A stretch of 57,568 nucleotides of DNA from a virus: positions 1 to 57,568 of the IMG/VR virus record IMGVR_UViG_3300017776_000014; one strand, written 5' to 3'. Under the pieces are notes generated by a model, which was not told the origin of the DNA, searched no databases, and worked only from the letters and a program-made list of their open reading frames with translations. Both the position numbers and the translations under genes were made by a program. Shown one piece after another: positions 124 to 57,568 of the stretch (positions are counted from its first letter, which is position 1; every line of letters begins with the position of its first letter).

Positions 124-741
124 TCAACTCGTGAAGCAACATTCACATTCATCAATGATGCTGTTGCGCTTCCACAATCTGCTAACAGACCTATGATCTA
201 CCAAGATCCTCGATTCGCTCTCTTCACTCAATTCCAGGGTTTTATGGCTACCTTCACAGCAAACCATATACCAAAGCTATGGGGTGAATACGTTAAGCGT
301 GGTACTCCCGCTATGAAGTACAATGCGTTTGCTACTATGACTACTATGATTATGCTAGGCTTCGCATCTCAATACTTAAAAGACCTTATTAAGTATGGTC
401 AAAAGTCTCCGTACTTAGATGATGCTGAGATTATTCAAAGAGGTGTCATGTCAAGCGGATTGCTTGGCACTGGTGAGAGAGTTATAGAGCAGTTCTTTCC
501 GATCTATGAGCAACGCTCTGATGGAGCGGGAGAGTGGTTCTTTAATACATCAGTTGGCGAATCACCTGCACTAAGCACTGTTAAACGTCTTGGTAGAGTA
601 GGTGGAAGCGTGATTGAAGGTGACATAGAAAGAGCAGCATATCAAGGGCTAAAGACAACTCCGTTTCTTGGTCCATTCACAGAGCTTAATAAGAAGCTTG
701 CAAGTAATCTTTCCGGATGGAATTATAATGGAGAACAGTAA
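1..741 (+). CDS. C-terminal 246 codons of the 1289-aa internal/ejection virion protein that starts at 54317 (wraps across the circular junction)
   Basis: Position 1 is codon position 1 of the frame that is open from ATG 54317 to the window end. The stop TAA is at 739-741. The ORF-track entry 22..741 is the same frame. Confidence 0.85.
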   Translation, partial: QQEADEALRNLGIDVDEFVRVSKLLDSGYVLNEADLNFWNDSTREATFTFINDAVALPQSANRPMIYQDPRFALFTQFQGFMATFTANHIPKLWGEYVKRGTPAMKYNAFATMTTMIMLGFASQYLKDLIKYGQKSPYLDDAEIIQRGVMSSGLLGTGERVIEQFFPIYEQRSDGAGEWFFNTSVGESPALSTVKRLGRVGGSVIEGDIERAAYQGLKTTPFLGPFTELNKKLASNLSGWNYNGEQ

Positions 742-3700
742 TGGCTAGAGCAACAGTAGCAGGTAGTATTAGTGCTGCACAGGATAAGAAGATTCCTCAG
801 GGGGTAGAGTTACCCTCTGAGACAGCATTAGATTACGCTAAAGCTGTACCTTCTTGGCTTGAAAACTTACGTGGTATGCCTGAGCAAGAGCAAGCCATAT
901 CTGAGCAAGAGCAAGCCATATCTGAGCAAGAGCAAGCAACGGAAGTTAGAGCTCCAACTACGACGCAGTTAAGTACACCTGAAAATCCAGAAGATTCTGT
1001 GTCTGCACCTGCCCAACCTATAGTAAATCCTGATAGTTCTTTTATAGAAGAAATAGAAAGACAATCTATACCTTCGTTTAAACAAAAACAACGCATGGAA
1101 ACCGGGCCGGATAAATGGCAATATAATAGTTCAGCTCAAAATGCTAACTCGTTACCTTTACAAACTAACCAATCAGATGGTGGGATGAAGACTCGCGCGA
1201 CTGATATTATTAATAATAAAAATGGTATTGGGTTTACAGTGCAAGCTGATCCTCAAGGTGAAACTACTTCTGCAATGAGTAAAGTCTTACATAAGCTTGG
1301 AGCAGTAGTCGAAAAGCAACCTGAAGATTTAGGCTTTACGCCTGATAAGCTTTCTTATAAAGCTGATCCTGCTTTAATGGGTGTTGGTGCGCTTGTTGTT
1401 GAAAACGATTTTTCTGAAATTATGCTTAATGAAGAAGAAGCTGAATCAGATCCTTTAAAAGAAGTAATGAAAACCTCAAAGTTTGACGAACAATACCAAA
1501 AACCGTTAACTCTTGAAGTAACTCGTGCAAAGAATAATGCAAAGGTCGGTAACAAGGTATACCAAGAGTATCAACGATTAAAAGGTGAAGCATCTGCAGA
1601 TCCTACGATTCCTGAAAGAGCTTTACCAAGAGAAGAAGCTGAAATTCTTGGGCAAGCTATGAAAGAAATATGGGCTCGCAATAATCCTGATATGATTGAG
1701 ATTATCCCTGGCAACGAGAAAGAGCAGGCTACGTATCGTATTACTGATGAAGGACAAACAAAGCTAGCGAGGAATACTCTTGAGCGTACTAAGTTCTTTA
1801 ATAAAACTATTGTACAGCCTTCTAAAATACCTTTACCAGAAGGTAAATTACCGGGAGATGTAGGTGCAACAGTAGTAAAAGATATATCTGGCAGAGTTGG
1901 AAACATAAGACTTGGTAAAGAGATAGCTCAAGCTGCTAGGAATTTATCTACAGTACCGCATGTTGTAGATAATAGACGTGCACGCATTATGTATCAAACT
2001 CTTTTACCAGTGCTTGCCACAAACTCATCTTCATCTTGGATGGCTGACATCTATAGCATAGGCCAAGATAAAATGAATGACTTTCTTGGTGCGCAGAGAG
2101 GTTATCAAAGAAAGGCTAAAGAAGCTGAAGCTCGAGGAGAATTAGATAAGTTTATTAAACTCAACGGTGTATATGATCCACAAGAGAATATGGCTAAGTT
2201 GAGATTTAAGATTGCGCAAGAGGCACAGTCTATTGCACAGAATAGAAAGGGTGCTAATTACCTAACATACAATGTACAGTCTTTTAATGGACGCCTCACA
2301 CCTCAGCAAACTTACTTCAATCCAGTAACATCTAAGCTTGTTAGGTTTGTAACTAAAAATGCAACACCTGCAGTAGTTAAGAAGGGTAGTAGACAAGAAC
2401 GTAATTTAAGACAGATCTATACGTTATTACTTAACGACAGCATTAGTGGCTCACCTATGAATGGAGCTGATTCTCTTTTACCAGATGCTAGAGATAGCGC
2501 TTTAACCGTTGCAACCCCAAAACTAAAACAATGGGGTGAAAGGCTTAAGCAAGTTCTAACTATGACGAACGAAGAGTACGAAGCAGTATCAGAAGCTATC
2601 TCGAAAGGGTTACCATTTTCTGATCCAGCATTCCCTAAAGTTCAACCTCTCGCTCTTGATCCTACGAATGATAAGGATCTTATCGATGCTATACAAAGTA
2701 AAGGCGAAGACGGTCCACATTATATGGACGCGTTGATTGACTTCGTGGATTATGTAGACGCGATGAAAGCAGGTAAGGACTTTAGAACAAGTATTAACGC
2801 TTACATCGATGGTAAGACTAATGGCACTGCATCTAACGCTATGCAGATGGGATATATTCCTACTGCGTTTCGAACAGGTGTTCTTAGGTTAGGCACTGAA
2901 AACCTTCTTGATGAAGGTGATGTGCGAGATCAACTCAAAGAACTTGCTCTATCCTCTATAACCGAAGGTTGGGATGGTAACACAGAAGCTTTTATCGGCG
3001 AACTTAATTTTGTAGCTAGGGAGATTTATAGTGATCGCGGGTTAAACAAGATGACGACTATGACATTTGGTTATGGTAAAGAAATTAATAGCTTTGCTTT
3101 TGCTATGTCTGATCTAATGGATGAACTGGCTGTACAAGATAAAGACTTTGCAGATAATTTAGATAGATTGATAAAGAAATCTAAACTGTCGCAAGACAAA
3201 GTAGCTAAAGATCTTTTAATGAATAAGTACGGTGCAGCTCTTGTAGGTGTTATATCATCTGAAGCTGTCAATGCTAGACGTTTAATGCGGGCTTCTGCAA
3301 TAGTCCATGCGACTATAGATTCGCCTTTAATTATTAAGAGCTATACAGGTATGGACCTTATACTAGGTGGATATGAAAACACAGGAGACTTTGAGACAGA
3401 TAATGTAGTTATCTTTGATAAGCTACAAGAAGCTGCTGGTGGTAAAGTAAGGAATGTATCTAAGGTTATGCATTACGATTCTAAACTTACCGCTGCTGCT
3501 GCTAGAACTCGTACAGATGATGACGGGAATATTACAAATATCCCTGGAGAGTACGTGTATGGTGGTTCTTTACCAGCTCCTGTTCAATCTCTTGATGCTG
3601 CAACTGTAGCCATGTCTTCTTCTGGAAAAAGCTGGAGTAAACTTAAATACAACTCCGGTGGCAACCCATATATGCTAACTATTTATGATGCGTTTAAGAT

Positions 3701-4304
3701 GGATGTTAATGGGTATGATACTATATTGGAAGAAGTAAATGCTAACTGGCTTAAAGCTTCTACTGAATGGTCTTATCTTAAAGAAACTAAAGAGGCTACT
3801 CAAAAAGCAGTTAATGCTTGGAATAAAAAGAATAAAGGTCGAGATCCTAAAGATAAACTTTCTCGAACAGAGAGAATGTTTATGGATTATATGCTTAGTC
3901 TAGAGCCTAACGCTAAAGGTGAGCCTAGTCAAAAACCTTTTGTTAATAAGATAAGTAAAATGCTTATAATCCCTCCTTCGCATACAGATGAAGATGGCTT
4001 CAATCCAAGACTTTGGAAGCTTGCTAGCAAAATTAAAGTTATGATGTCCAATGTAGGATATAATGTTGCTAACGCTCCTGCAGAAGGAGAAGCTACTTGG
4101 GAGCAGCTTAGAGTATTTACTAATTTTATATTACAAGCTCAAGCCCACTATGATCTAGGATCTAGTAAAGATGTGGATGCTGGAGCAAGTAAATTAAGTA
4201 ATCAATTTGACCAAGCAATAGCTCACACTGAGAGTAACAAGAAGAAGTTAAAAGAAAAAATAAAAGAATTAGGCGTTCCAGTCTATCAGTATTACGCTCA
4301 CTAA
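741..4304 (+). CDS. Divergent single-subunit (T7/N4 superfamily) RNA polymerase, candidate virion-packaged RNAP, 1187 aa
   Basis: Four motifs appear in the canonical order: NVQSFNGRL..YFNP (compare T7 DWRGRVY..MFNPQG), YIDGKTNGTASNAMQMG (motif A, compare DGSCSGIQHFSA), RGLNKMTTMTFGYG (motif B, R-x3-K-x7-YG), and LTIYDAFKMD (motif C, compare HDSF). TAATG start overlap with the preceding ejection-protein gene. Confidence 0.75.
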   Translation: MARATVAGSISAAQDKKIPQGVELPSETALDYAKAVPSWLENLRGMPEQEQAISEQEQAISEQEQATEVRAPTTTQLSTPENPEDSVSAPAQPIVNPDSSFIEEIERQSIPSFKQKQRMETGPDKWQYNSSAQNANSLPLQTNQSDGGMKTRATDIINNKNGIGFTVQADPQGETTSAMSKVLHKLGAVVEKQPEDLGFTPDKLSYKADPALMGVGALVVENDFSEIMLNEEEAESDPLKEVMKTSKFDEQYQKPLTLEVTRAKNNAKVGNKVYQEYQRLKGEASADPTIPERALPREEAEILGQAMKEIWARNNPDMIEIIPGNEKEQATYRITDEGQTKLARNTLERTKFFNKTIVQPSKIPLPEGKLPGDVGATVVKDISGRVGNIRLGKEIAQAARNLSTVPHVVDNRRARIMYQTLLPVLATNSSSSWMADIYSIGQDKMNDFLGAQRGYQRKAKEAEARGELDKFIKLNGVYDPQENMAKLRFKIAQEAQSIAQNRKGANYLTYNVQSFNGRLTPQQTYFNPVTSKLVRFVTKNATPAVVKKGSRQERNLRQIYTLLLNDSISGSPMNGADSLLPDARDSALTVATPKLKQWGERLKQVLTMTNEEYEAVSEAISKGLPFSDPAFPKVQPLALDPTNDKDLIDAIQSKGEDGPHYMDALIDFVDYVDAMKAGKDFRTSINAYIDGKTNGTASNAMQMGYIPTAFRTGVLRLGTENLLDEGDVRDQLKELALSSITEGWDGNTEAFIGELNFVAREIYSDRGLNKMTTMTFGYGKEINSFAFAMSDLMDELAVQDKDFADNLDRLIKKSKLSQDKVAKDLLMNKYGAALVGVISSEAVNARRLMRASAIVHATIDSPLIIKSYTGMDLILGGYENTGDFETDNVVIFDKLQEAAGGKVRNVSKVMHYDSKLTAAAARTRTDDDGNITNIPGEYVYGGSLPAPVQSLDAATVAMSSSGKSWSKLKYNSGGNPYMLTIYDAFKMDVNGYDTILEEVNANWLKASTEWSYLKETKEATQKAVNAWNKKNKGRDPKDKLSRTERMFMDYMLSLEPNAKGEPSQKPFVNKISKMLIIPPSHTDEDGFNPRLWKLASKIKVMMSNVGYNVANAPAEGEATWEQLRVFTNFILQAQAHYDLGSSKDVDAGASKLSNQFDQAIAHTESNKKKLKEKIKELGVPVYQYYAH
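881..939 (+). repeat. Tandem 21-bp repeat (about 2.8 copies) encoding (S/P)EQEQAI x3 near the N-terminus of the RNAP-like protein
   Basis: The unit tgagcaagagcaagccatatc occurs at 881-901 and 902-922, with a partial third copy at 923-939. Confidence 0.9.
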
Positions 4305-4319
4305 TCTCTAAGGTGAGAC

Positions 4320-4375
4320 AAAAAAAATAGCCCTACTCAGGTCCATTACGGATCTAAGTAGGGCACTTTTTTTTT
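4320..4375. terminator. Bidirectional intrinsic terminator between convergent genes
   Basis: An A8 run, a long hairpin (GCCCTACT...AGTAGGGC with apical TCC-ATTAC-GGA, 4330-4364), then a T9 run. It lies between the stop of 741..4304 (+) and the stop of 4374..4619 (-). Confidence 0.85.
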
Positions 4376-4619
4376 ATTTAAGCATACCATTCTTGGCAAG
4401 CAGTTCTTTGATGTCACGCTTCGCTGTGTTGAAGTTTTGTGTAGCAATTTCTTCGCTAACACCTTCAGCTATGTTCTCATCATACACACGTTTAAGCATA
4501 ACATCATTAATGCGTGGAGTGTAGGCTACGTCCTCAGGTAATCCAAACTCCTCAACATATTCCATGTCATCCACATTGGCGCCGCGTAGCGCTAAATAAT
4601 TATAAGATTTTTTACTCAT
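4374..4619 (-). CDS. Hypothetical protein (81 aa)
   Basis: ORF with ATGA start/stop overlap with the upstream RNAP gene. It is the last gene of the minus operon, just before the terminator. Confidence 0.6.
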   Translation of the reverse strand: MSKKSYNYLALRGANVDDMEYVEEFGLPEDVAYTPRINDVMLKRVYDENIAEGVSEEIATQNFNTAKRDIKELLAKNGMLK

Positions 4620-6895
4620 GCAAAGAAATACTCCGATTTCTCTATATCAGATATATCAAGTGAGCCTATGGTAGGTTGCTCAACATCTAACTCTGATTGG
4701 TTTGTTACTAATTGATCTTGAATGTAGTTGTAGAAGTTATCCACATCGTACATCCTAATGAATACGCTCTTAGTTAGTGATAGGAGTTTATCCACATCAC
4801 ATGCGTGGGTTGAGAATGAGTCATGCACTGCACCAAAGTCTTCATTCCATTCATCTATAACGAGTGCCATGTGGCTTGCGTCTAGTGAGTGGACGAAGTT
4901 AGGTGATACACCCCTCATAAATCCTCTTATGTCCGGCATTCTACTTGGGACTTGCGCCACATGTTTTATCTGCTTTCCATCAATACTACCTCTAGTTTTA
5001 GCTGATCGCATAATCCAGTTTTCGTAATGGACTTTGAATCCTGAGGGTGTTACCCATGAAAGTGTATCTGATCCGTTACCGTAAACCTTAACACTTGTAT
5101 AACTATTTAGCTGCTTCTTCAGCTCATCCAACTCGTCTAACTCTTCGTCAGTCTTGTCTTCCTGGATGTATAGTTCTTTATACCTAGCTTTAATAGTATC
5201 GTATTCTTTACCAGCCTTTTCTCCATCAGGGCCTACGCGTTCATACTTACCTATCTCAAACGCAGCGAGATTTTGGAAGTAACTCATAGTAGATAATGGA
5301 CCTGGGCATACGTTATCAATCGCTCTAATCAAAGTCTTTGCGAGGCTCTTGCAATTATCCTCTGTGATGTCGTATGTTATATGGAAGTCATCTGCTTTAC
5401 AATCGAAGAACATATTCTCTGCGATCTTACCAGCACCAGCTGAGTATGCTCGAGTCATCGAGCCTCTCTTACTAATGCCTTTACGGATGTGCTTCATCGG
5501 CATGGTGTCGAGCTTACCTTGTATTTCCTCATCCTCATTGAGGTTGATAAGCTCCTTTGCGGTTTGCACGTAGAAGTCTTGTTGAATATCTGTAGGTATT
5601 AGACCAACAAGTTTACCTGTCTGTGGGTCTTTAGATATAGCACCTAAGTGCTGCCATCCGTTATTAGAACCATCGATCGGTATAGGTAGGTGGGTCATGA
5701 ATATTCTATTTTGCTCACGGGCAATTGAATAATCGTACCACTCTATACAAGTTGCGAGAAAAGCCACCGGCTTCTCTGCGTCTTCTGAGAAACTAGCAGC
5801 TCTACCTGCTTGCATTATCTCATCCATATATTCATTAGTCCATTGGATTCTATCTTGTATAACCATTTTGTCTACTGAGATATTATCTAGACCTTCATCT
5901 TTTAAGTACGTTTTGTAGTCTGTGCTGCACCACTCTGGTATTTCATCTATAGAGTAGGACATGTTGAATGAAGTCGCTGTGTGTATAGCTAACCATTGTA
6001 GACCTTCATCGGTCATTGGTTTACCTCTCGCAAACTTCAATAATCCTCTAGCTAAATCAGATCCTTGAAAGTTTAAGAAAGGTTCACTATAATATAGTCT
6101 ACTTCTATAATCCGCTTCTAAATACTGATAGAATACATCAGCATCTTTAAGCTTCTTAGCCTTCTCCGTTATGAAATACCATTCAATACATTTGCTTCTA
6201 CGTTTCTGTTCTTTCGCATCATTATCCTCAATGGGATTATAGGATACGAAGAAGTCTTCATTGTCTAGCAGAGCATCTAATACTCTACGATTAATCCTCC
6301 ACCCAGTCCGTTGCAATTTATTAATCGCTCTAACCCAAGGCTTGTTAATGTCAAACTCGTCCTGGCTATTCTTCACAACATGGATAGTCCTATCAGAGAC
6401 TGACTGGGTTGACTTCCTAATAAGGGGAGGGCGGTTCCGTGAGGTTCCAATAAGGTTTATACGTTCCCGTGTTTCTGGAATGTCTCCTAAAATAGCCCAA
6501 TCAGAGGTTGCGGATATAATGTAGGAGCTATCCCGTACTTTCGGGTAGTATAACTCGATTAAGTTATTAACTTTATATGCTTCAATAAACAAATCACCTA
6601 ATCGAACTTGCATATTCCAAGGTAATGGTTCTCGTTGGATACGCGTAGATATTGCTTGACCAATAAGCATAGACGTAGCTGTAAGCTTAGCCGTCCCTGC
6701 TGGAGAGTCAGAGCTTGTCCTCGAGAATTGAAATTGGATTATTGAGAAGGAGATACTGACGAACTTGTCAATATCCTCTTCCCAAGTTTTATGCAGCCGC
6801 AGAAGAACAGCACCGGAATTAGCTTTGGGATTTTTAGGATTTACTTTCCTTATCTTTTCCCGAAGATGATCGGTTACTCGGTTTAATGCAGTCAA
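4616..6895 (-). CDS. T7-like single-subunit DNA-dependent RNA polymerase (759 aa)
   Basis: DYRSRLYY..FLNFQGSDLARGLL (DxxGR region), PIDGSNNGWQHLGAIS (motif A), KRGSMTRAYSAG (motif B), AVHDSFSTH (motif C). The C-terminal YFFA compares with the T7 FAFA foot. Confidence 0.93.
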   Translation of the reverse strand: MTALNRVTDHLREKIRKVNPKNPKANSGAVLLRLHKTWEEDIDKFVSISFSIIQFQFSRTSSDSPAGTAKLTATSMLIGQAISTRIQREPLPWNMQVRLGDLFIEAYKVNNLIELYYPKVRDSSYIISATSDWAILGDIPETRERINLIGTSRNRPPLIRKSTQSVSDRTIHVVKNSQDEFDINKPWVRAINKLQRTGWRINRRVLDALLDNEDFFVSYNPIEDNDAKEQKRRSKCIEWYFITEKAKKLKDADVFYQYLEADYRSRLYYSEPFLNFQGSDLARGLLKFARGKPMTDEGLQWLAIHTATSFNMSYSIDEIPEWCSTDYKTYLKDEGLDNISVDKMVIQDRIQWTNEYMDEIMQAGRAASFSEDAEKPVAFLATCIEWYDYSIAREQNRIFMTHLPIPIDGSNNGWQHLGAISKDPQTGKLVGLIPTDIQQDFYVQTAKELINLNEDEEIQGKLDTMPMKHIRKGISKRGSMTRAYSAGAGKIAENMFFDCKADDFHITYDITEDNCKSLAKTLIRAIDNVCPGPLSTMSYFQNLAAFEIGKYERVGPDGEKAGKEYDTIKARYKELYIQEDKTDEELDELDELKKQLNSYTSVKVYGNGSDTLSWVTPSGFKVHYENWIMRSAKTRGSIDGKQIKHVAQVPSRMPDIRGFMRGVSPNFVHSLDASHMALVIDEWNEDFGAVHDSFSTHACDVDKLLSLTKSVFIRMYDVDNFYNYIQDQLVTNQSELDVEQPTIGSLDISDIEKSEYFFA

Positions 6896-50756: not shown

Positions 50757-53700
50757 ATGAAAGATCTTACTGATCCAACAAATAGGGATAGCGTCCCCGC
50801 GATGCTCACCCCAGGGGAGTACGTCCTCAATAAGGAAGCTACGGAGATGTACGGTCCTATCATCGAACAAATGAATGAGAATGGTTTGGCTGCACGCGCG
50901 GAGGGGAATATGGGAGTACTCTCTTTAAATACTGGTGGTTCATCTCTAAGGCCTAAAGCAAGACCAGATAAATTCAAACCTTATGACTTGCAAGAAGGTA
51001 TAATTGAAACCGCAAAAATACTTAAAATATCTCCTTTAGATTTAGCTACTGTTATATCTTACGAAACAGCCGGAACATTTGATCCTTTGAGAAAAGGTCC
51101 AGTGACTAAACACGGAATGCACAAAGGGCTTATTCAGTTTGGAACAGGAAGTAAAGATGGATCGGTTGCAAAAGGTTCTATAGCAGATGAGTTTGATGTT
51201 GAGTTCAATACTAAAAACTCATCTTTAAGGTCGCAATTAGGATACATGGGTGAAGATGGTAACTGGGTTCCTGGTGCGATTGTTAAACACTCTTTAGCTA
51301 GAGGATTTAAGCCAGGAGAACATGGAGCTCTTGACCTATACTCTTCTATAAATGCTGGTGGAGTTGGACCTAAAGCACATGGTAAGACAGATGAGTTTGC
51401 AGGCGGTATGCCCGGCACTGTTTCTCAAAAATTAAATACAATGTACGAAGACGCTGGAAATATAACTCATTTAGATAGAGCGAAGGCATTATTTCCAGAT
51501 TGGATGGATAAAGGTATGGATCATTACTTACCTCCTATCATAACCACAAATGAAACAGGAGCAGTAGAAACATCCATAAATCCTAAATCAAGACCTACTT
51601 CTGTAGGAATACCTCAAGAAGTACAGGTGGATCAAACACCTACACTTCCGCAGCAAGAACAACCTGTTGTGATGCCGCAAGTACCTCAACAAGTACAGCC
51701 TTCTCCTATGTTAGAAGTGCCTGTGCAAGGGTACCCTGATGCTGGTGTGTTTATTCCTGACTTTGCACCACAACAAGAGCTTATTCCTAATCCTAGCTAT
51801 AGTCCTCCTGGAACTATTAAGGAAGAGTCTAATCCCCAGTTACGTAATGAAATCTATTTAGGACCTGAAACAAACGTTCGGCCTTTACAGATTAAAAATC
51901 CTACAGGGGAGGTACCTGCTGAAGATGCAGATGATGGCTTTTCTTGGAGCGATTATTTTAGGGACGCTGCTGTTAGCACGTATAATTACTTAATGCCTCG
52001 TCAATTTGAAATGCAGGCAGTTCCCTCCGTAGCTGAGGATTTGCAACGCGATCTTTATCGTAGAGGCCCTAGCCAGTACGTAGGTGGAATGGTGTTTAAC
52101 CAAGGAGGTCCTGTGCAACATTTAAATCCCGGCGGTAGAGCTGGAGGAAAGAAGAAGGTATGGGATTCTGCTACGCAAAGTTACATATGGGTAGGACCTA
52201 GTGATCCTCGTCACACTGGCAATGCGCCTACTATTAATGAGGATAGAGTACCTCGCGTAAATCCTAATCCTGCTCCCTTTACTTTTGACTTAACTTCTAA
52301 TATGCCTGTACGTCCAGGTCAAGACAATGTAGTTCAACCTACATCTAACACAATGGTCCCACCCTCACCGCTTAACATTCCGACTATGCCTAATCCTACG
52401 GTAGATGCAGAGCCAATAGTTGTGGATACTGCACCGGCACCAATGAGTGATGAGGCATTGCTGAATACTTCATCTCAAATTGTTGAGCAAAGGGAAGATA
52501 TTGCAGAAGCAAATAGACTAAAGCATAATGCACAGCTAAGAGAGTATGCTCGTCAGTTTCCTGAAGGAGATCCTAGACGTATTGAAGCGTTTAACAATGT
52601 GCTACATCAAAAAGCTGCAGCTCATCCTAGTTATGCTAATGATAGGCCTATTGAATCGGGACTTGTAGCGCAAGCCCCTCCAGTTCCACCACAGCCTTCA
52701 CCTATTAATTACTCTCAACTAAGCGAAGATGCTTTGATTACACTATCAGATGATGGAGATGAAACTGCTTCAGATGAAATTAGGAGACGCAACGATTTAG
52801 TAAATGTTGTAGACCCTATCATTGAAGATCAGCGCAACTTAGGTTATACTGATTTAACGGCGCCGGGTATACATGATTCTAGGCCTGATATAGGAAACCT
52901 AGGACCTGGTATATACGCAGAAGCAGATCACCTTGGCGCTTTATCGCCTGGAGTTATTGCTGAGTTAGGTCCTGAAAATGTTCCTACGTTAGACGGAACT
53001 GTAATCCCATCAACTCATGAGTTAGCTCTTATGGATCCTAGTAGTCCTGAAACATTAGATGCATTAGCTCTTGCAGATGTGGTTGATGTGAATGCTACAG
53101 TAGACTTTGACGATCCTCGCGGTCCTGACCAACGTCAAACTGTTGAGCAGGCGCAAGACTCTAGTCAACGTGAAGCAACTGTTAGAAGTAAAGTTGCAGA
53201 AGTTGATGAGGGTGAAGGTCCAGCTTCTAATATAAGTAATGATGAAGCAGCAAGTAAAGGTGCTGCAGTTATTGCTGAAAATCCAGCTGAAGAATCCAAA
53301 GCTATGTCTGCTATTAAAGGATTCTTTGGAGACCTCTTCACAGCGGATGAGTTGAAACGTGCAGCTGTTCTATTTGTTGGTGCTATGTTAACTGGTGCAA
53401 CACCTGGGCAGGCACTTGCGTTTGCTGGTAAAGACTATCTATCTCGTGGAGATGCACATAGTAAGTATGTCAAAGAGTTAATGGAAGAAGGCGACCATAC
53501 TACTGCATCGATTAAGGCGTATAGTAAAAGTAAAAACTTAGAAGACCTAGTTCCAAAGCAAGCTATGCGCGAAGGCACAGGGGAATATAAAGCAGTGTTT
53601 AGCCCTAGTGGTCAACGTATTAGAGCTATGAAAGTAAACGTAGGAACTAATCAAAACATCTGGGTTAATGCTAAAACTGGTGAAAGAATTCCTGGATATT

Positions 53701-54296
53701 GGAATGATAATCCAGCGCTTCAACCAAGAACTCCTGAATATAGAGAAGCAGTTCAAAAGGCAGGCAAAAACTATGCTAACCAAATTAAAGGTCTTCAAAG
53801 GGATCTTGCTGGTATCGAAGATAGTGATAGGACAATAACCCAATTAACACCTGAAGTTGTAGGTGGAGATATTGCTAAATGGGCTATTGATAATAATGTG
53901 GATGAAACCTATATGCCTACTATTATCCGTAACGCTTACAATGATTTATTGAGAGATGTTAAAGATGGTGGTAAAGCGGGCCAAAGCCTTAAGCCTTATC
54001 TACAAGCACAGTACGTTACTGCAATGTCTACTGGGAGAGGTATATTTACTCTCACTGAAGGAGATAATGCGGGTGAGCGGATGAGTGCTGAGAAGATAAG
54101 TGAAGCCCTCACCACTGCTAAACGTATTGTCACAAGTAGTGGTTCTGCTGAGAACGTAACAGATGTACAGATTGTTGACTCAATATTAATTGAATGGGAA
54201 AAACTAAGTCAAGAAGAACAGTCTAAGTACACACCATCTAATACTGAAACACCGTTCTTTAAATTCTTAAAAGAGCAAATCAATAGTGCAAAATAA
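50757..54296 (+). CDS. Large internal/ejection protein with lytic transglycosylase (SLT) domain (1179 aa)
   Basis: LATVISYETAGTFDP...GLIQFG matches the SLT catalytic-Glu signature (ES..F.P...G.MQ). A long Pro/Gln-rich linker follows. The size and position resemble the T7 gp16 class. Confidence 0.75.
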   Translation: MKDLTDPTNRDSVPAMLTPGEYVLNKEATEMYGPIIEQMNENGLAARAEGNMGVLSLNTGGSSLRPKARPDKFKPYDLQEGIIETAKILKISPLDLATVISYETAGTFDPLRKGPVTKHGMHKGLIQFGTGSKDGSVAKGSIADEFDVEFNTKNSSLRSQLGYMGEDGNWVPGAIVKHSLARGFKPGEHGALDLYSSINAGGVGPKAHGKTDEFAGGMPGTVSQKLNTMYEDAGNITHLDRAKALFPDWMDKGMDHYLPPIITTNETGAVETSINPKSRPTSVGIPQEVQVDQTPTLPQQEQPVVMPQVPQQVQPSPMLEVPVQGYPDAGVFIPDFAPQQELIPNPSYSPPGTIKEESNPQLRNEIYLGPETNVRPLQIKNPTGEVPAEDADDGFSWSDYFRDAAVSTYNYLMPRQFEMQAVPSVAEDLQRDLYRRGPSQYVGGMVFNQGGPVQHLNPGGRAGGKKKVWDSATQSYIWVGPSDPRHTGNAPTINEDRVPRVNPNPAPFTFDLTSNMPVRPGQDNVVQPTSNTMVPPSPLNIPTMPNPTVDAEPIVVDTAPAPMSDEALLNTSSQIVEQREDIAEANRLKHNAQLREYARQFPEGDPRRIEAFNNVLHQKAAAHPSYANDRPIESGLVAQAPPVPPQPSPINYSQLSEDALITLSDDGDETASDEIRRRNDLVNVVDPIIEDQRNLGYTDLTAPGIHDSRPDIGNLGPGIYAEADHLGALSPGVIAELGPENVPTLDGTVIPSTHELALMDPSSPETLDALALADVVDVNATVDFDDPRGPDQRQTVEQAQDSSQREATVRSKVAEVDEGEGPASNISNDEAASKGAAVIAENPAEESKAMSAIKGFFGDLFTADELKRAAVLFVGAMLTGATPGQALAFAGKDYLSRGDAHSKYVKELMEEGDHTTASIKAYSKSKNLEDLVPKQAMREGTGEYKAVFSPSGQRIRAMKVNVGTNQNIWVNAKTGERIPGYWNDNPALQPRTPEYREAVQKAGKNYANQIKGLQRDLAGIEDSDRTITQLTPEVVGGDIAKWAIDNNVDETYMPTIIRNAYNDLLRDVKDGGKAGQSLKPYLQAQYVTAMSTGRGIFTLTEGDNAGERMSAEKISEALTTAKRIVTSSGSAENVTDVQIVDSILIEWEKLSQEEQSKYTPSNTETPFFKFLKEQINSAK

Positions 54297-54316
54297 ACAG
54301 TCTTAAGGAGATTCAT

Positions 54317-57300
54317 ATGGGTTGGTTAGATAACATACAAAATCGTCCAGATACGAGCCTTAACGATCGTTTAAATTTTATTGACGCGGATACTGTTCAG
54401 GATAATGAAGGTAATCTATATAGGCTTCAGGGGTTTGATGCTCCTGAAGTTTCAAAACTATTCGATAACCAGTATAAACCTGGTGAAGCTGGTGGACAAG
54501 TAGCTACGGAATCTATCGCTAGGCTAGCACGCGATCGAGGTTATACAAATATCAAACCGGTTATAGGTGAAGATGGTAAACCTATGGTTGGCCAGTTTGG
54601 TAGGCCTATCGTTGATCTAACAGATGATGCAGGAGATTCATTTGTAAACCGTGTATTGAAAGAAGGTATATTTGAGCCTACTAAATATGCTTCTAGTATG
54701 GATATGACTCGTGCGGCTCTTGGTCAGAACTCAAGAGAGCGTGACGCTGAGGTAGGCGTTGCGAAGGATGAGTGGGATACTGCGAGACAGATGATTGAAG
54801 ATGGTGCCTTACAAGAAGGTGCAAAGTCTTTAGGATTTAAACAGACTGCATTGAACGAGCAGCAACTTGCAAATGCAAAGCGCTCTGGTCTTGGTAATTA
54901 CTTTTCCCATAGTAATACTCAAATTGACCACTTAGATAGGGATATAAATAACCAATCACTAAACCCCTTCTCAGATTCTTGGGAGCAAGGCTGGATTAGC
55001 GTTATGGAATCTAGCTACGGCATCATGAATATGATGGGAGAAACTACTGGGTCTGATTGGTTAGCCGACATTGGTGAGGAGGGAGTGAAGCGTCAGCGTG
55101 ATCTTCTTGGTTCCTACGGGGAAACTACTTTAGATTTTAGAGATGTTGATAGCGCGGGAGAAGCGTTTGATTATCTCGGCAATAACTTAGCGTTATCTAT
55201 TCCATACATGGTTGGTACTGCTATTGGCGCGTTAGGAGCTCCATTTACATATGGTACTTCTATGCTTCTCCCTGTTTCGCTCTACACTGGGCAAGTGTGG
55301 AATGAGATGGAAGGAGAAAATAAAAATGCTGGTGTTGCAATCGGTGCTGGTGTTATGCAAGCAGCATTAGACCGTCTCGGTTTAAAGGGGATTGTAGCAG
55401 CAGGTAAACCAAAGCAGGTTATAAGACAAGCCACAGAAGAACTTGTCCGGCAGGGTGTACCAAGACGCATGGCTCAAGCCCGTGTTCTTGAGGCTACTCG
55501 CAGAGAAGCTGCAGCATTAGTAGGTAATGTTAGAGATATTGCTAAACAGCAAATCGCTAAGAAGCAAGTGTTTAAAGATTTATCTACGCGCGTTGGATTA
55601 GGTGGAGCGTCTGAGGCTGGTACTGAAGCTTTGCAAGAAGCTATAGGCTACACAGCAGCACACCTACAAGAAGGCTTTGACTTCGGTGATCTTAATAACC
55701 GGATGATCTCTGGTGCTGTCGCAGGCGGATCTCTAGGTGGTGCTATGTCTGTGCCTGGAGCTGTCTACAATACGGGAGCTTGGGCTGATCTAGCTTACAG
55801 GTTAGATGATGCTGATAACTCCACTGCATCAGATGCTGGTATGTGGGCTGATTGGGAGAGGCGTCAGAATGGGAGGATACAATCTGTTGAGGAGATAGCA
55901 GAAGAAATCTTTAATAGACCTTCTACTACAGGCCCATCATTTAATGATAGATCAGATCAACATAGGTTATCCAATAGAGAACGTACAACTTGGGATGTGT
56001 TTAAAGAGAATGCTTTAAATGTATCTCAACTATGGCAAGGCGCTACTCGTAATATCTTCACACCTGAGTTAAAAGCTAGATCAAGATCTGCAAGAATACT
56101 TGCCGACATGTTTGGTGGTGGATTGCAGAGAACGTTTAGTGGATCAAGCTTTGAAAGCGCAAAGCAACATATACTAGCTAAGTATAAGAATACTATATCT
56201 AGACCTGATGATGTATACCGTACGCTATCTGGCAATGCTAGATGGTTGAATAGGAAGAAGCGTGGGCAGATCAGTCAAGATATTTATAACAGGCTTAATG
56301 CTGCTGTTGTTAATGGAGTGTTTCAACCTGATAGAGTTACAGGCCCGAATGCTGATGTCATACGCCAGTTAGGTGCGGAGCTGAATAAGCTTGCTGCTGA
56401 TATGCATAGGGACCAAAGGAAATACAACCCTGAGCTAGGCGTAGTTTCTAATTACCTATTTAAGTATAAGGCTTTAAACAAAACTGCGGTTAGGAAAGAC
56501 AGAGCTGGATTTCAACAGGCTTTAGTAGATGAATTTGCAAATGATCCTAATAATAGGATGACGCATGCAGATGCTAAGAAGTTAGTAGACGAAATACTAG
56601 ATAATCCTCAAGTGTCTGACGTTGATGAAGCATTCTCTGTTACGAATGGAGGTATTGTGCCTGCAGCGCATAGGCGTAGAACTCTACGTCTTTCAGAGAG
56701 AGAAGCATTTAAAGACTATATGGATCAAGATATGTTTGCTAATGTTTCAACTGCAGCGAAGTCAGCCGCACGGTACGTAGCTCATAGAAAATATATAGGT
56801 AAGAATGGAGAAGTAGTTAATAAACTTCTCGATGATATGGTGAGTGAGGGTGTATCTCCTGAGGAAGTTAACAAAGTTGCTTCACGAATGAAGGATTACT
56901 TAGATGCTGAATCAGGAAACTATAAACGTCCTACATCAGCTCAAGGTAAAGCCTTGCAGAGAATACAAAGAAGTTTTATGATGCTTACTACTCTAGCAGG
57001 ACTTCCTCTTGCAACTGTGTCTTCAATTGTTGAAGCCGCGTTAGTGCATAAAGCTTTAACAAGCGACCAAATCTTCGGTAAGAATGGAAGTTTAAAAACC
57101 ATGGGAGAAGAGTTTGCTAAAGCTATGTGGCAAGGAGCAGGCTCTATTACTGATGTAGCTACTGGTGCAAAAGAAAGAGCTTTAACTTCTGGCCAAGAAA
57201 GACTACAAGAATTAGGGTTTTATGAGTGGGATGTTGGTGCAGCTACTGTGACAGGCGTTACAGAGACTAATCAATTATCACAGCGGGCATATGAACTATT

Positions 57301-57568
57301 CTTTAAAGCCACTGGTCTAACAGGGTGGACTAACTTTACACGTGCAGCACGAGCAGCTATTGCTATGGACTACATGGTGGATAAAGCTAGAACGCTATTC
57401 GACGCAGATGTTGGTGGCGTTAATCCTGAAGCTAGAACTAGAGAACAGCAAGAGGCTGATGAAGCCTTGCGTAATTTAGGTATTGACGTAGATGAGTTTG
57501 TAAGAGTATCTAAACTTTTAGATTCTGGTTACGTCTTGAATGAAGCGGATTTAAACTTTTGGAACGAC
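54317..57568 (+). CDS. 5' part of a 1289-aa internal/ejection protein with an N-terminal staphylococcal-nuclease-like domain (continues at 1..741)
   Basis: ATG at 54317 after AAGGAG. I spot-translated parts of the frame and found them open. The absence of any plus-strand ORF-track entry after 54296 is also consistent with an ORF that has no stop inside the window. The N-terminus is FIDADTVQDNEGNLYRLQGFDAPE...GQFGRPIVDL...FVNRVLKEGI (SNase pattern DGDT...RL.GIDAPE...YGR...N..L...G.A). Hydrophobic segments lie around 55190-55330. Confidence 0.8.
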   Translation, partial: MGWLDNIQNRPDTSLNDRLNFIDADTVQDNEGNLYRLQGFDAPEVSKLFDNQYKPGEAGGQVATESIARLARDRGYTNIKPVIGEDGKPMVGQFGRPIVDLTDDAGDSFVNRVLKEGIFEPTKYASSMDMTRAALGQNSRERDAEVGVAKDEWDTARQMIEDGALQEGAKSLGFKQTALNEQQLANAKRSGLGNYFSHSNTQIDHLDRDINNQSLNPFSDSWEQGWISVMESSYGIMNMMGETTGSDWLADIGEEGVKRQRDLLGSYGETTLDFRDVDSAGEAFDYLGNNLALSIPYMVGTAIGALGAPFTYGTSMLLPVSLYTGQVWNEMEGENKNAGVAIGAGVMQAALDRLGLKGIVAAGKPKQVIRQATEELVRQGVPRRMAQARVLEATRREAAALVGNVRDIAKQQIAKKQVFKDLSTRVGLGGASEAGTEALQEAIGYTAAHLQEGFDFGDLNNRMISGAVAGGSLGGAMSVPGAVYNTGAWADLAYRLDDADNSTASDAGMWADWERRQNGRIQSVEEIAEEIFNRPSTTGPSFNDRSDQHRLSNRERTTWDVFKENALNVSQLWQGATRNIFTPELKARSRSARILADMFGGGLQRTFSGSSFESAKQHILAKYKNTISRPDDVYRTLSGNARWLNRKKRGQISQDIYNRLNAAVVNGVFQPDRVTGPNADVIRQLGAELNKLAADMHRDQRKYNPELGVVSNYLFKYKALNKTAVRKDRAGFQQALVDEFANDPNNRMTHADAKKLVDEILDNPQVSDVDEAFSVTNGGIVPAAHRRRTLRLSEREAFKDYMDQDMFANVSTAAKSAARYVAHRKYIGKNGEVVNKLLDDMVSEGVSPEEVNKVASRMKDYLDAESGNYKRPTSAQGKALQRIQRSFMMLTTLAGLPLATVSSIVEAALVHKALTSDQIFGKNGSLKTMGEEFAKAMWQGAGSITDVATGAKERALTSGQERLQELGFYEWDVGAATVTGVTETNQLSQRAYELFFKATGLTGWTNFTRAARAAIAMDYMVDKARTLFDADVGGVNPEARTREQQEADEALRNLGIDVDEFVRVSKLLDSGYVLNEADLNFWND
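57446..57568. repeat. Terminal direct repeat, copy 2 (identical to 1..123)
   Basis: Exact 123-nt identity with the window start. Confidence 0.95.

Follow-up and report, generated by a model that had tools for sequence, protein, structure and literature searches.

Podovirus internal virion proteins (IVPs) exit the capsid via the tail and rebuild as a channel that spans the host envelope, and the N-terminal transglycosylase of T7 gp16 acts in the periplasm (PMC8954989), while the channel of phage N4 is built from gp51, gp52 and the N-terminal part of the virion polymerase, a membrane-binding domain (PMC13434306). Such proteins host variable enzymatic domains of the muralytic, methylase and RNA-polymerase types (PMC4819975), and the enzyme classes known on ejection proteins are hydrolases of the cell wall as well as, for certain groups, an RNA polymerase or methylase-like domain. 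Here, we describe a gene from a stretch of viral DNA of 57,568 nucleotides (IMG/VR record IMGVR_UViG_3300017776_000014, positions 1 to 57,568; hereafter referred to as the window), the 1289-amino acid (aa) product of which carries a head of the staphylococcal nuclease (SNase) fold at its N-terminus. Based on sequence and predicted structure, this product is, with somewhat better than even confidence, an IVP of a marine podovirus of the CRP-7 type, composed of a catalytically competent, Ca2+-dependent SNase-family phosphodiesterase head, a helical linker and an alpha-helical body, and the particle probably delivers a ready-made nuclease together with its DNA.

A described counterpart is gp34 of the cultured Roseobacter phage CRP-7 (QBQ72827.1, 1368 aa, annotated as ‘hypothetical protein’; PMC6918029), which possesses the same head and body, and whose head, with the motifs IDGDT, VRFGFGDAGE and YGRQ, matches the profile of alignment A1 (53 diverse heads, mean column identity of 40%) with an E-value of 1.4e-21. 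The order of the genes is also the same as in the window, with a lysozyme-bearing gp35, gp34 and a 1235-aa gp33, although gp34 exhibits only 22–29% identity to the window protein and bears a 40-residue N-terminal extension. Large size, alpha-helical character, an N-terminal enzyme and a position at the end of the tail/IVP operon are further shared with T7 gp16 (IVP-D), phiRIO-1 gp37, H66 gp60 and the C-terminal domain of N4 gp50 (PMC4819975, PMC8954989). The enzymes listed for the IVP-D family do not include a nuclease (PMC4819975, PMC8954989), whereas the head of the window protein is of the nuclease type.

Two other systems are relevant to a nuclease that enters with the genome. The nearest precedent is provided by BtI1, a prophage-like element of Bacillus, whose baseplate-hub homologue (a relative of 0305phi8-36 gp147) carries an N-terminal SNase-related domain where its relatives carry muralytic domains; this domain was noted in 2007 and its role was described as ‘not obvious’ (PMC2147016). 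The BtI1 protein is a cell-puncturing protein of the virion, yet it represents a myovirus tail hub directed at a Gram-positive host, and its carrier is unrelated to the podovirus internal protein. In injected polyvalent proteins, DNase domains of the DdrB-like ParB type likewise enter with the DNA, with a different fold (ParB/Srx), and host-DNA degradation, replication priming and exclusion of rivals have been proposed as their roles; in a survey of polyvalent proteins, no other DNase domain was found to accompany or replace ParB (PMC5512222).

The first and last 123 nucleotides of the window are identical (positions 1–123 and 57446–57568), which indicates that the contig represents a genome assembled as a circle, with a length of 57,445 bp; the duplication is an assembly overlap and the circular junction lies inside the gene of interest. 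The open reading frame (ORF) starts at ATG 54317 on the + strand, remains open for 1084 codons to the end of the window and continues across the junction to a stop codon at 739–741, and once it was joined in this manner, its length matched exactly the 1289 aa given in the first-pass annotation. The start codon is well supported: it is preceded by a Shine-Dalgarno sequence, the stop codon of the preceding gene lies upstream (54294–54296), and in the alignment at least 90% of the homologues begin at the position of Met1. The genome also encodes a portal and a major capsid protein, both of the SU10 type, and a large terminase. The elements of the gene are as follows:

54305..54310, + strand: Shine-Dalgarno sequence AAGGAG, 6 nt 5' of ATG 54317
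54317..57568, + strand: initial 1084 codons of the gene for the 1289-aa protein, the frame being still open where the window ends
124..741, + strand: last 205 codons and stop codon of the same gene (bases 1–123 duplicate 57446–57568)

Residues ~19–125 of the protein adopt the SNase fold. The motifs quoted in the first-pass annotation in favor of such a fold were all recovered in the translation, i.e., FIDADT (residues 21–26), YRLQGFDAPE (35–44), FGRPIVDL (94–101) and VNRVLKEGIFEP (110–121), and three approaches then agreed on the assignment. Firstly, an AlphaFold2 (AF2) model of residues 1–140, computed on alignment A1 with a mean predicted local distance difference test (pLDDT) score of 78.5, displays the order of elements of the SNase oligonucleotide/oligosaccharide-binding (OB) fold, with three strands, a low-confidence hairpin, a helix (57–74), two strands and a helix (109–116); a further helix (127–138) is located just beyond the domain. 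All 50 matches listed by a Foldseek search of this model against the PDB are SNase structures (probability 0.99–1.00, template modelling (TM) scores of 0.45–0.59). Secondly, the A1 profile aligns with SNase chains over profile positions 20–130 and chain positions 15–119 (E ~1e-3). Thirdly, the Pfam model PF00565 is matched by 18 of the 53 homologue heads (best E-value 2.2e-5), one homologue has a precomputed match to this model, and the CRP-7 head produces a weak match to the NucI thermonuclease model. The structural check proposed in the first-pass annotation thus returned SNase as the fold, while its Pfam check gave matches for some of the homologous heads and none for the window's own sequence.

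Against BFVD, the top match of the head model is an unnamed 1368-aa protein, i.e., of the same length as CRP-7 gp34, and several of the other matches bear the names of viral micrococcal nuclease or thermonuclease homologues. Weaker SNase-like matches were returned for A7KUR9_2 (a 965-aa piece; probability 0.94) and A0A7R7G2A4_1 (a 1160-aa piece; probability 0.63), fragments of two different viral proteins of very large size, which may represent further nuclease domains within giant virion proteins.

Compared to classical SNase (PF00565; PDB 1STN and 1EY0), with which it shares the five-stranded OB-fold barrel, three helices and the motifs IDxDT, (F/Y)R...D(A/T)PE and (F/Y)GR, the head of the window protein exhibits only ~15% identity, is strongly acidic (isoelectric point of ~4.5) and is devoid of an equivalent of K84. 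It also possesses an extra low-confidence hairpin (residues 45–56), lacks a signal peptide and forms the N-terminal part of a ~1290-aa protein, whereas the classical enzyme, which depends on Ca2+ and cleaves both DNA and RNA to yield 3'-phosphate products, is secreted alone.

The active site is conserved in this diverged domain. When the head of a homologue is aligned to SNase with HMMER, IDADT falls on IDGDT (positions 18–22), FRIQGVNAPE on FRLLLVDTPE and DKYGR on DKYGR, and this placement allows D23, D25, T26, R36, D41, E44 and R96 of the window protein to be equated with D19, D21, T22, R35, D40, E43 and R87 of SNase, respectively. Conservation was assessed across 245 aligned homologues, which were retrieved from a search of 1.84 billion cluster representatives:

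54371..54691, + strand: SNase-fold head, residues ~19–125, as placed by AF2, Foldseek, and profile and HMMER alignments
54383..54394, + strand: D23-A24-D25-T26, equivalent to SNase D19-G20-D21-T22 (Ca2+ site); D23 and D25 in 240/240 homologues
54422..54448, + strand: R36 to E44 (RLQGFDAPE), containing the equivalents of SNase R35, D40 and E43; R36 in 239/240 and E44 in 239/239
54590..54604, + strand: G92-Q93-F94-G95-R96, equivalent to SNase D83-K84-Y85-G86-R87; R96 in 239/239, position 94 being F or Y in 145/245

The Ca2+-site Asp and the catalytic Arg and Glu positions, which had been pointed out from the single sequence, are therefore near-invariant across the family, and residues D23, D25, T26, R36, G39, E44, G59, L70, G75, R96 and G106 are invariant among the 53 heads of A1. 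In SNase, Ca2+ is bound by the side chains of D21 and D40 and by the backbone carbonyl of T41, and mutagenesis has identified D40 as the least critical of the SNase residues equated above. The equivalent of D21 (D25) is invariant, while the position corresponding to D40 (D41) is occupied by Asp in the window protein and in 151 homologues, by Asn in 59 and by other residues in ~29, so that the pattern of conservation in the family mirrors catalytic importance. Because the four key catalytic residues are invariant despite a family identity of ~40%, the head is most likely an active nuclease, a point on which our confidence is higher than for the complete reading given above.

The head, located within the first ~130 residues, is carried by an alpha-helical body of ~1150 aa, to which it is connected by a helical linker. 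The first-pass annotation had noted hydrophobic, channel-like segments in the remainder of the protein, and these proved to be moderately hydrophobic, Gly/Ala-rich helices (residues 291–309, 338–356, 463–481 and 887–905) in an all-alpha structure, as expected of an ejection protein; an AF2 model of residues 1–1084 (mean pLDDT of 74.4) is all-alpha after the head. One of the Gly/Ala-rich segments is a candidate membrane-inserting helix:

54722..54961, + strand: helical linker between head and conserved body, residues ~136–215, absent, together with the head, from headless relatives
55187..55276, + strand: Gly/Ala-rich hydrophobic segment, residues 291–320 (LALSIPYMVGTAIGALGAPFTYGTSMLLPV), Kyte-Doolittle 19-residue mean of 1.39, candidate membrane-inserting helix
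56975..57031, + strand: most hydrophobic segment, residues 887–905 (FMMLTTLAGLPLATVSSIV), Kyte-Doolittle mean of 1.72

The body provides a putative link between the protein and the virion. A profile of the body (A2) matches gp14 of Vibrio phage VPp1, annotated as ‘particle protein’ (E 1.3e-12), and a 1043-aa protein of Pseudomonas phage JB8 (E 1.5e-22), both of which belong to phrog_6958, ‘virion structural protein’; the last 246 residues of the window protein match this same family directly (E 4e-7). The homology of these two proteins to the body is collinear, from residue ~220 to ~1180, and their genes are located at the end of a structural operon. Unlike the window protein, they lack the SNase head and the linker and begin at the Gly/Ala-rich region.

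The genomic neighborhood is consistent with this assignment. The SNase gene is located at the far end of the operon for tail proteins and IVPs, adjoining the gene for a large protein that bears a muralytic domain. The cassette as a whole specifies two successive large proteins, each with an enzymatic domain (a peptidoglycan hydrolase and the SNase head, respectively) followed by a stand-alone polymerase-like protein:

50757..54296, + strand: upstream neighbor, a 1179-aa internal-protein candidate with the SLT-like motif SYETAG ... GLIQFG
741..4304, + strand: downstream neighbor, a 1187-aa RNA-polymerase-like protein, its position being kept in relatives

In all of the relatives examined, the gene after the SNase gene encodes a protein of ~1084–1235 aa. 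The SNase protein of four metagenomic relatives is preceded by a large protein (with an SLT domain, a Phage_lysozyme domain or no Pfam match), and a protein of ~1084–1153 aa ends the operon, beyond which a convergent gene for a T7-like RNA polymerase is found. The location between a lytic-transglycosylase or lysozyme protein and an RNA-polymerase-like protein, as originally described for the window, is thus kept in CRP-7 and in these four relatives. The term ‘ejection protein’ is accordingly used here in a contextual sense, as a designation that synteny and body homology would support well.

The cell-wall hydrolase of the upstream protein was observed to vary: it is SLT-like in the window, a Pfam SLT domain in contig L005 (5767–8991), Phage_lysozyme in L009 (1822–4527) and a Pesticin-type lysozyme in CRP-7 gp35, with the counterpart in L001 being located at 2151–5822. 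The body of the upstream protein is homologous between the window and its L005 counterpart, and the combination of a homologous body with differing hydrolases indicates that the enzyme domain has been swapped on the neighboring ejection protein. Residues 8–62 of the 1179-aa protein (window 50757–50900) contain MLTPGEYVLNKEA, which matches a segment of the tape-measure-type families phrog_25241 and phrog_35029 and occurs again in the L005 counterpart, at residues 164–204. This motif seems to represent a small conserved module that the 1179-aa protein has in common with tail tape-measure proteins.

The association of head and body extends throughout the family, which comprises more than 389 full-length metagenome homologues (following clustering at 90%). 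A search with the head alone finds 132 clusters (50% identity) among the 1.84 billion representatives, and 74 of the 76 long representatives found in this way share the same body, so that this sequence search gave no sign of independent fusions of the head to other carriers. The apparently headless members P0061 and P0062 are frameshift-split ORFs in long-read contigs, in which the head is intact just upstream. Since the body is shared and the headless members are explained by frameshift, the fusion of head and body appears, from these comparisons, to be single, ancient and fixed. In L009 (4547–5041) and L010 (3011–3439), the head was observed as a separate ORF of 142–164 aa that overlaps the body ORF by ~40–50 nt; these splits are likely due to a frameshift, with assembly error being probable given that the coverage of L010 is 3x.

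Taken together, these data are consistent with the following course of events. A few copies of the protein would reside in the capsid and would be expelled through the tail at infection, in a manner similar to T7 gp14–16 or N4 gp50–52, and the head would cut nucleic acid after ejection. SNase-type enzymes need millimolar Ca2+, by which the head would be harmless in the producing cell, and this need suggests that it acts in the Ca2+-rich envelope. The head would accordingly be silent in the Ca2+-poor cytoplasm in which particles are made and would be switched on by seawater-level Ca2+ in the envelope or periplasm, which is also where the muralytic N-terminal domain of T7 gp16 works. Its uniformly acidic surface may keep it off the packaged genome, and candidate substrates would be DNA from competitors or superinfection, nucleic acid of the host, or one end of the phage's own DNA.

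A number of observations weigh against this reading. In a single-sequence search, the 160 N-terminal residues of the window protein gave no match to Pfam, PHROGs, NCBIfam or PDB sequences, and the equivalent of D40 is not strictly conserved among the homologues. The charge of the head, computed over residues 1–135 (window 54317–54721) and over 233 homologous heads of at least 100 residues, is a further point: all of these heads are acidic, with a median isoelectric point of 4.6, a maximum of 6.5 and a net charge of ~-9, whereas classical SNase is strongly basic, and with K84 also lacking an equivalent, tight non-specific binding of DNA is doubtful. The acidic surface may prevent binding to the packaged genome, or it may signal a different substrate or a binding-only role. 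With respect to the body, an hmmsearch with A2 detected no homology to N4 gp50–gp55 (E-values of at least 0.046), and hhalign comparisons of A2 with T7 gp16, T7 gp15 and the C-terminal and N-terminal domains of N4 gp50 gave probabilities below 1%, which is a weak test in view of the single-sequence templates employed; homologue searches with T7 gp16 returned only sequences of at least 94% identity, from which no diverse profile could be built. The IVP family is also notoriously divergent (PMC4819975). A fold search of the 1084-residue model against the PDB returned no match to the body, the ABC-transporter alignments obtained being spurious (TM scores below 0.11).

Among the alternative explanations, action in the host cytoplasm fares best, although we consider it unlikely. 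The head would in this case be an active nuclease that arrives before or together with the DNA and cuts host DNA or mRNA, or nucleic acids of defense systems such as CRISPR RNA (crRNA), retron DNA or signaling oligonucleotides, resulting in host shut-off or in pre-emptive counter-defense, with modified phage DNA that might escape. The catalytic residues are intact and the RNA-polymerase-like product of the next gene must enter the cytoplasm; however, the millimolar Ca2+ that SNase-type enzymes require is absent from that compartment, each infection would bring in only a few molecules, avid binding to polymeric nucleic acid is at odds with the acidic surface, and SNase is not known to discriminate against modified bases. 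A cytoplasmic destination does have parallels, in that IVP-D homologues are reported to carry domains ‘destined for the cytoplasm’ (PMC4819975) and injected polyvalent proteins carry DNases for which such roles have been proposed (PMC5512222).

Rather improbable, and slightly more so than cytoplasmic cutting, is the possibility that the head does not cut at all and represents a phosphate- or nucleic-acid-binding module that holds a DNA end or a nucleotide by means of its conserved metal and arginine site, for example in piloting the leading end of the genome, comparable to the SN-like domains of Tudor-SN. In SNase, the inhibitor pdTp is bound through its phosphates by R35 and R87, whose equivalents are invariant here, a location beside the DNA-delivery machinery fits a pilot role, and a loss of general nuclease activity could be compatible with the acidic surface and with the variability at the D40 position. 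Non-catalytic SN domains typically lose the general-base Glu and the Ca-ligand Asp, which counts against this explanation, as both E44, the equivalent of the general base, and the Ca-ligand D25 are invariant at a family identity of ~40%, i.e., the pattern expected for catalysis.

Returning to a head that is catalytic, a more specific and more speculative proposal, which we regard as improbable, is that it serves the ejectosome as a Ca2+-gated warhead, dedicated either to delivery of the genome or to phage–phage competition. In one version, the head may be positioned on the periplasmic face of the channel and destroy the DNA that rival or superinfecting phages release at this site, thereby providing virion-borne superinfection exclusion from the first second of infection. 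In the other version, it may nick or resect the phage's own DNA at the leading end and so expose the single-stranded template on which a co-injected, compact N4-type RNA polymerase depends for the initiation of transcription.

Very unlikely is a protein that is not packaged, such as a membrane-associated, late non-structural nuclease that breaks down host DNA or scavenges nucleotides, the gene of which is located in the structural operon by chance. The presence of nucleotide-metabolism genes, including one for ribonucleotide reductase, in the genome would be in keeping with this, as would the lack of detected homology to the proven ejection proteins mentioned above (T7 gp15/gp16 and N4 gp50–gp55). 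It is opposed by the homology of the body to genes annotated as ‘virion structural protein’ and ‘particle protein’, by the fixed place of the gene between those for the muralytic-domain and RNA-polymerase-like proteins at the end of the late operon, and by a size and all-alpha architecture that are typical of IVPs.

Finally, a chance motif match or an ankyrin-type repeat at residues 70–133 (54524–54715) is effectively refuted as the source of the SNase resemblance: designed ankyrin repeat proteins do top the list of the A1 profile against the PDB (E 1.5e-9) and the window sequence has no direct SNase match, yet the ankyrin matches are confined to positions 70–133, with per-stretch E-values of at least 0.56 that are inflated by the summing of repeats, the AF2 model exhibits strands rather than helix-turn-helix elements in this region, the fold search returned only SNase, 18 heads match PF00565, and all catalytic residues are equivalent motif by motif. 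The profile segment LAneqGftnvvklldedGep..vdafgRelvdL was seen to resemble a consensus ankyrin repeat, a resemblance that was judged to be spurious.

The first-pass annotation had considered a nuclease on a podovirus ejection protein to be unusual. This holds for the nuclease: full-text searches of the literature turned up no description of ejection proteins or IVPs with an SNase or thermonuclease domain, and nucleases are not mentioned in a review of ejection proteins. It does not hold for enzymatic domains as such, which have already been described on podoviral IVPs (PMC4819975), and what is new is therefore the type of enzymatic head, variable enzymatic domains on such proteins being known.

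If the active site works, a nuclease would represent a new class of pre-made enzyme that arrives with the phage DNA, which raises the questions of how it is stored beside ~57 kb of DNA without cutting it and of what it cuts on arrival. The pairing of strict catalytic conservation with a uniformly acidic surface is unusual for the SNase family and may mark a different substrate or form of regulation. As this marine family includes the cultured roseophage CRP-7, the proposed delivery of a nuclease by the particle would be directly testable.

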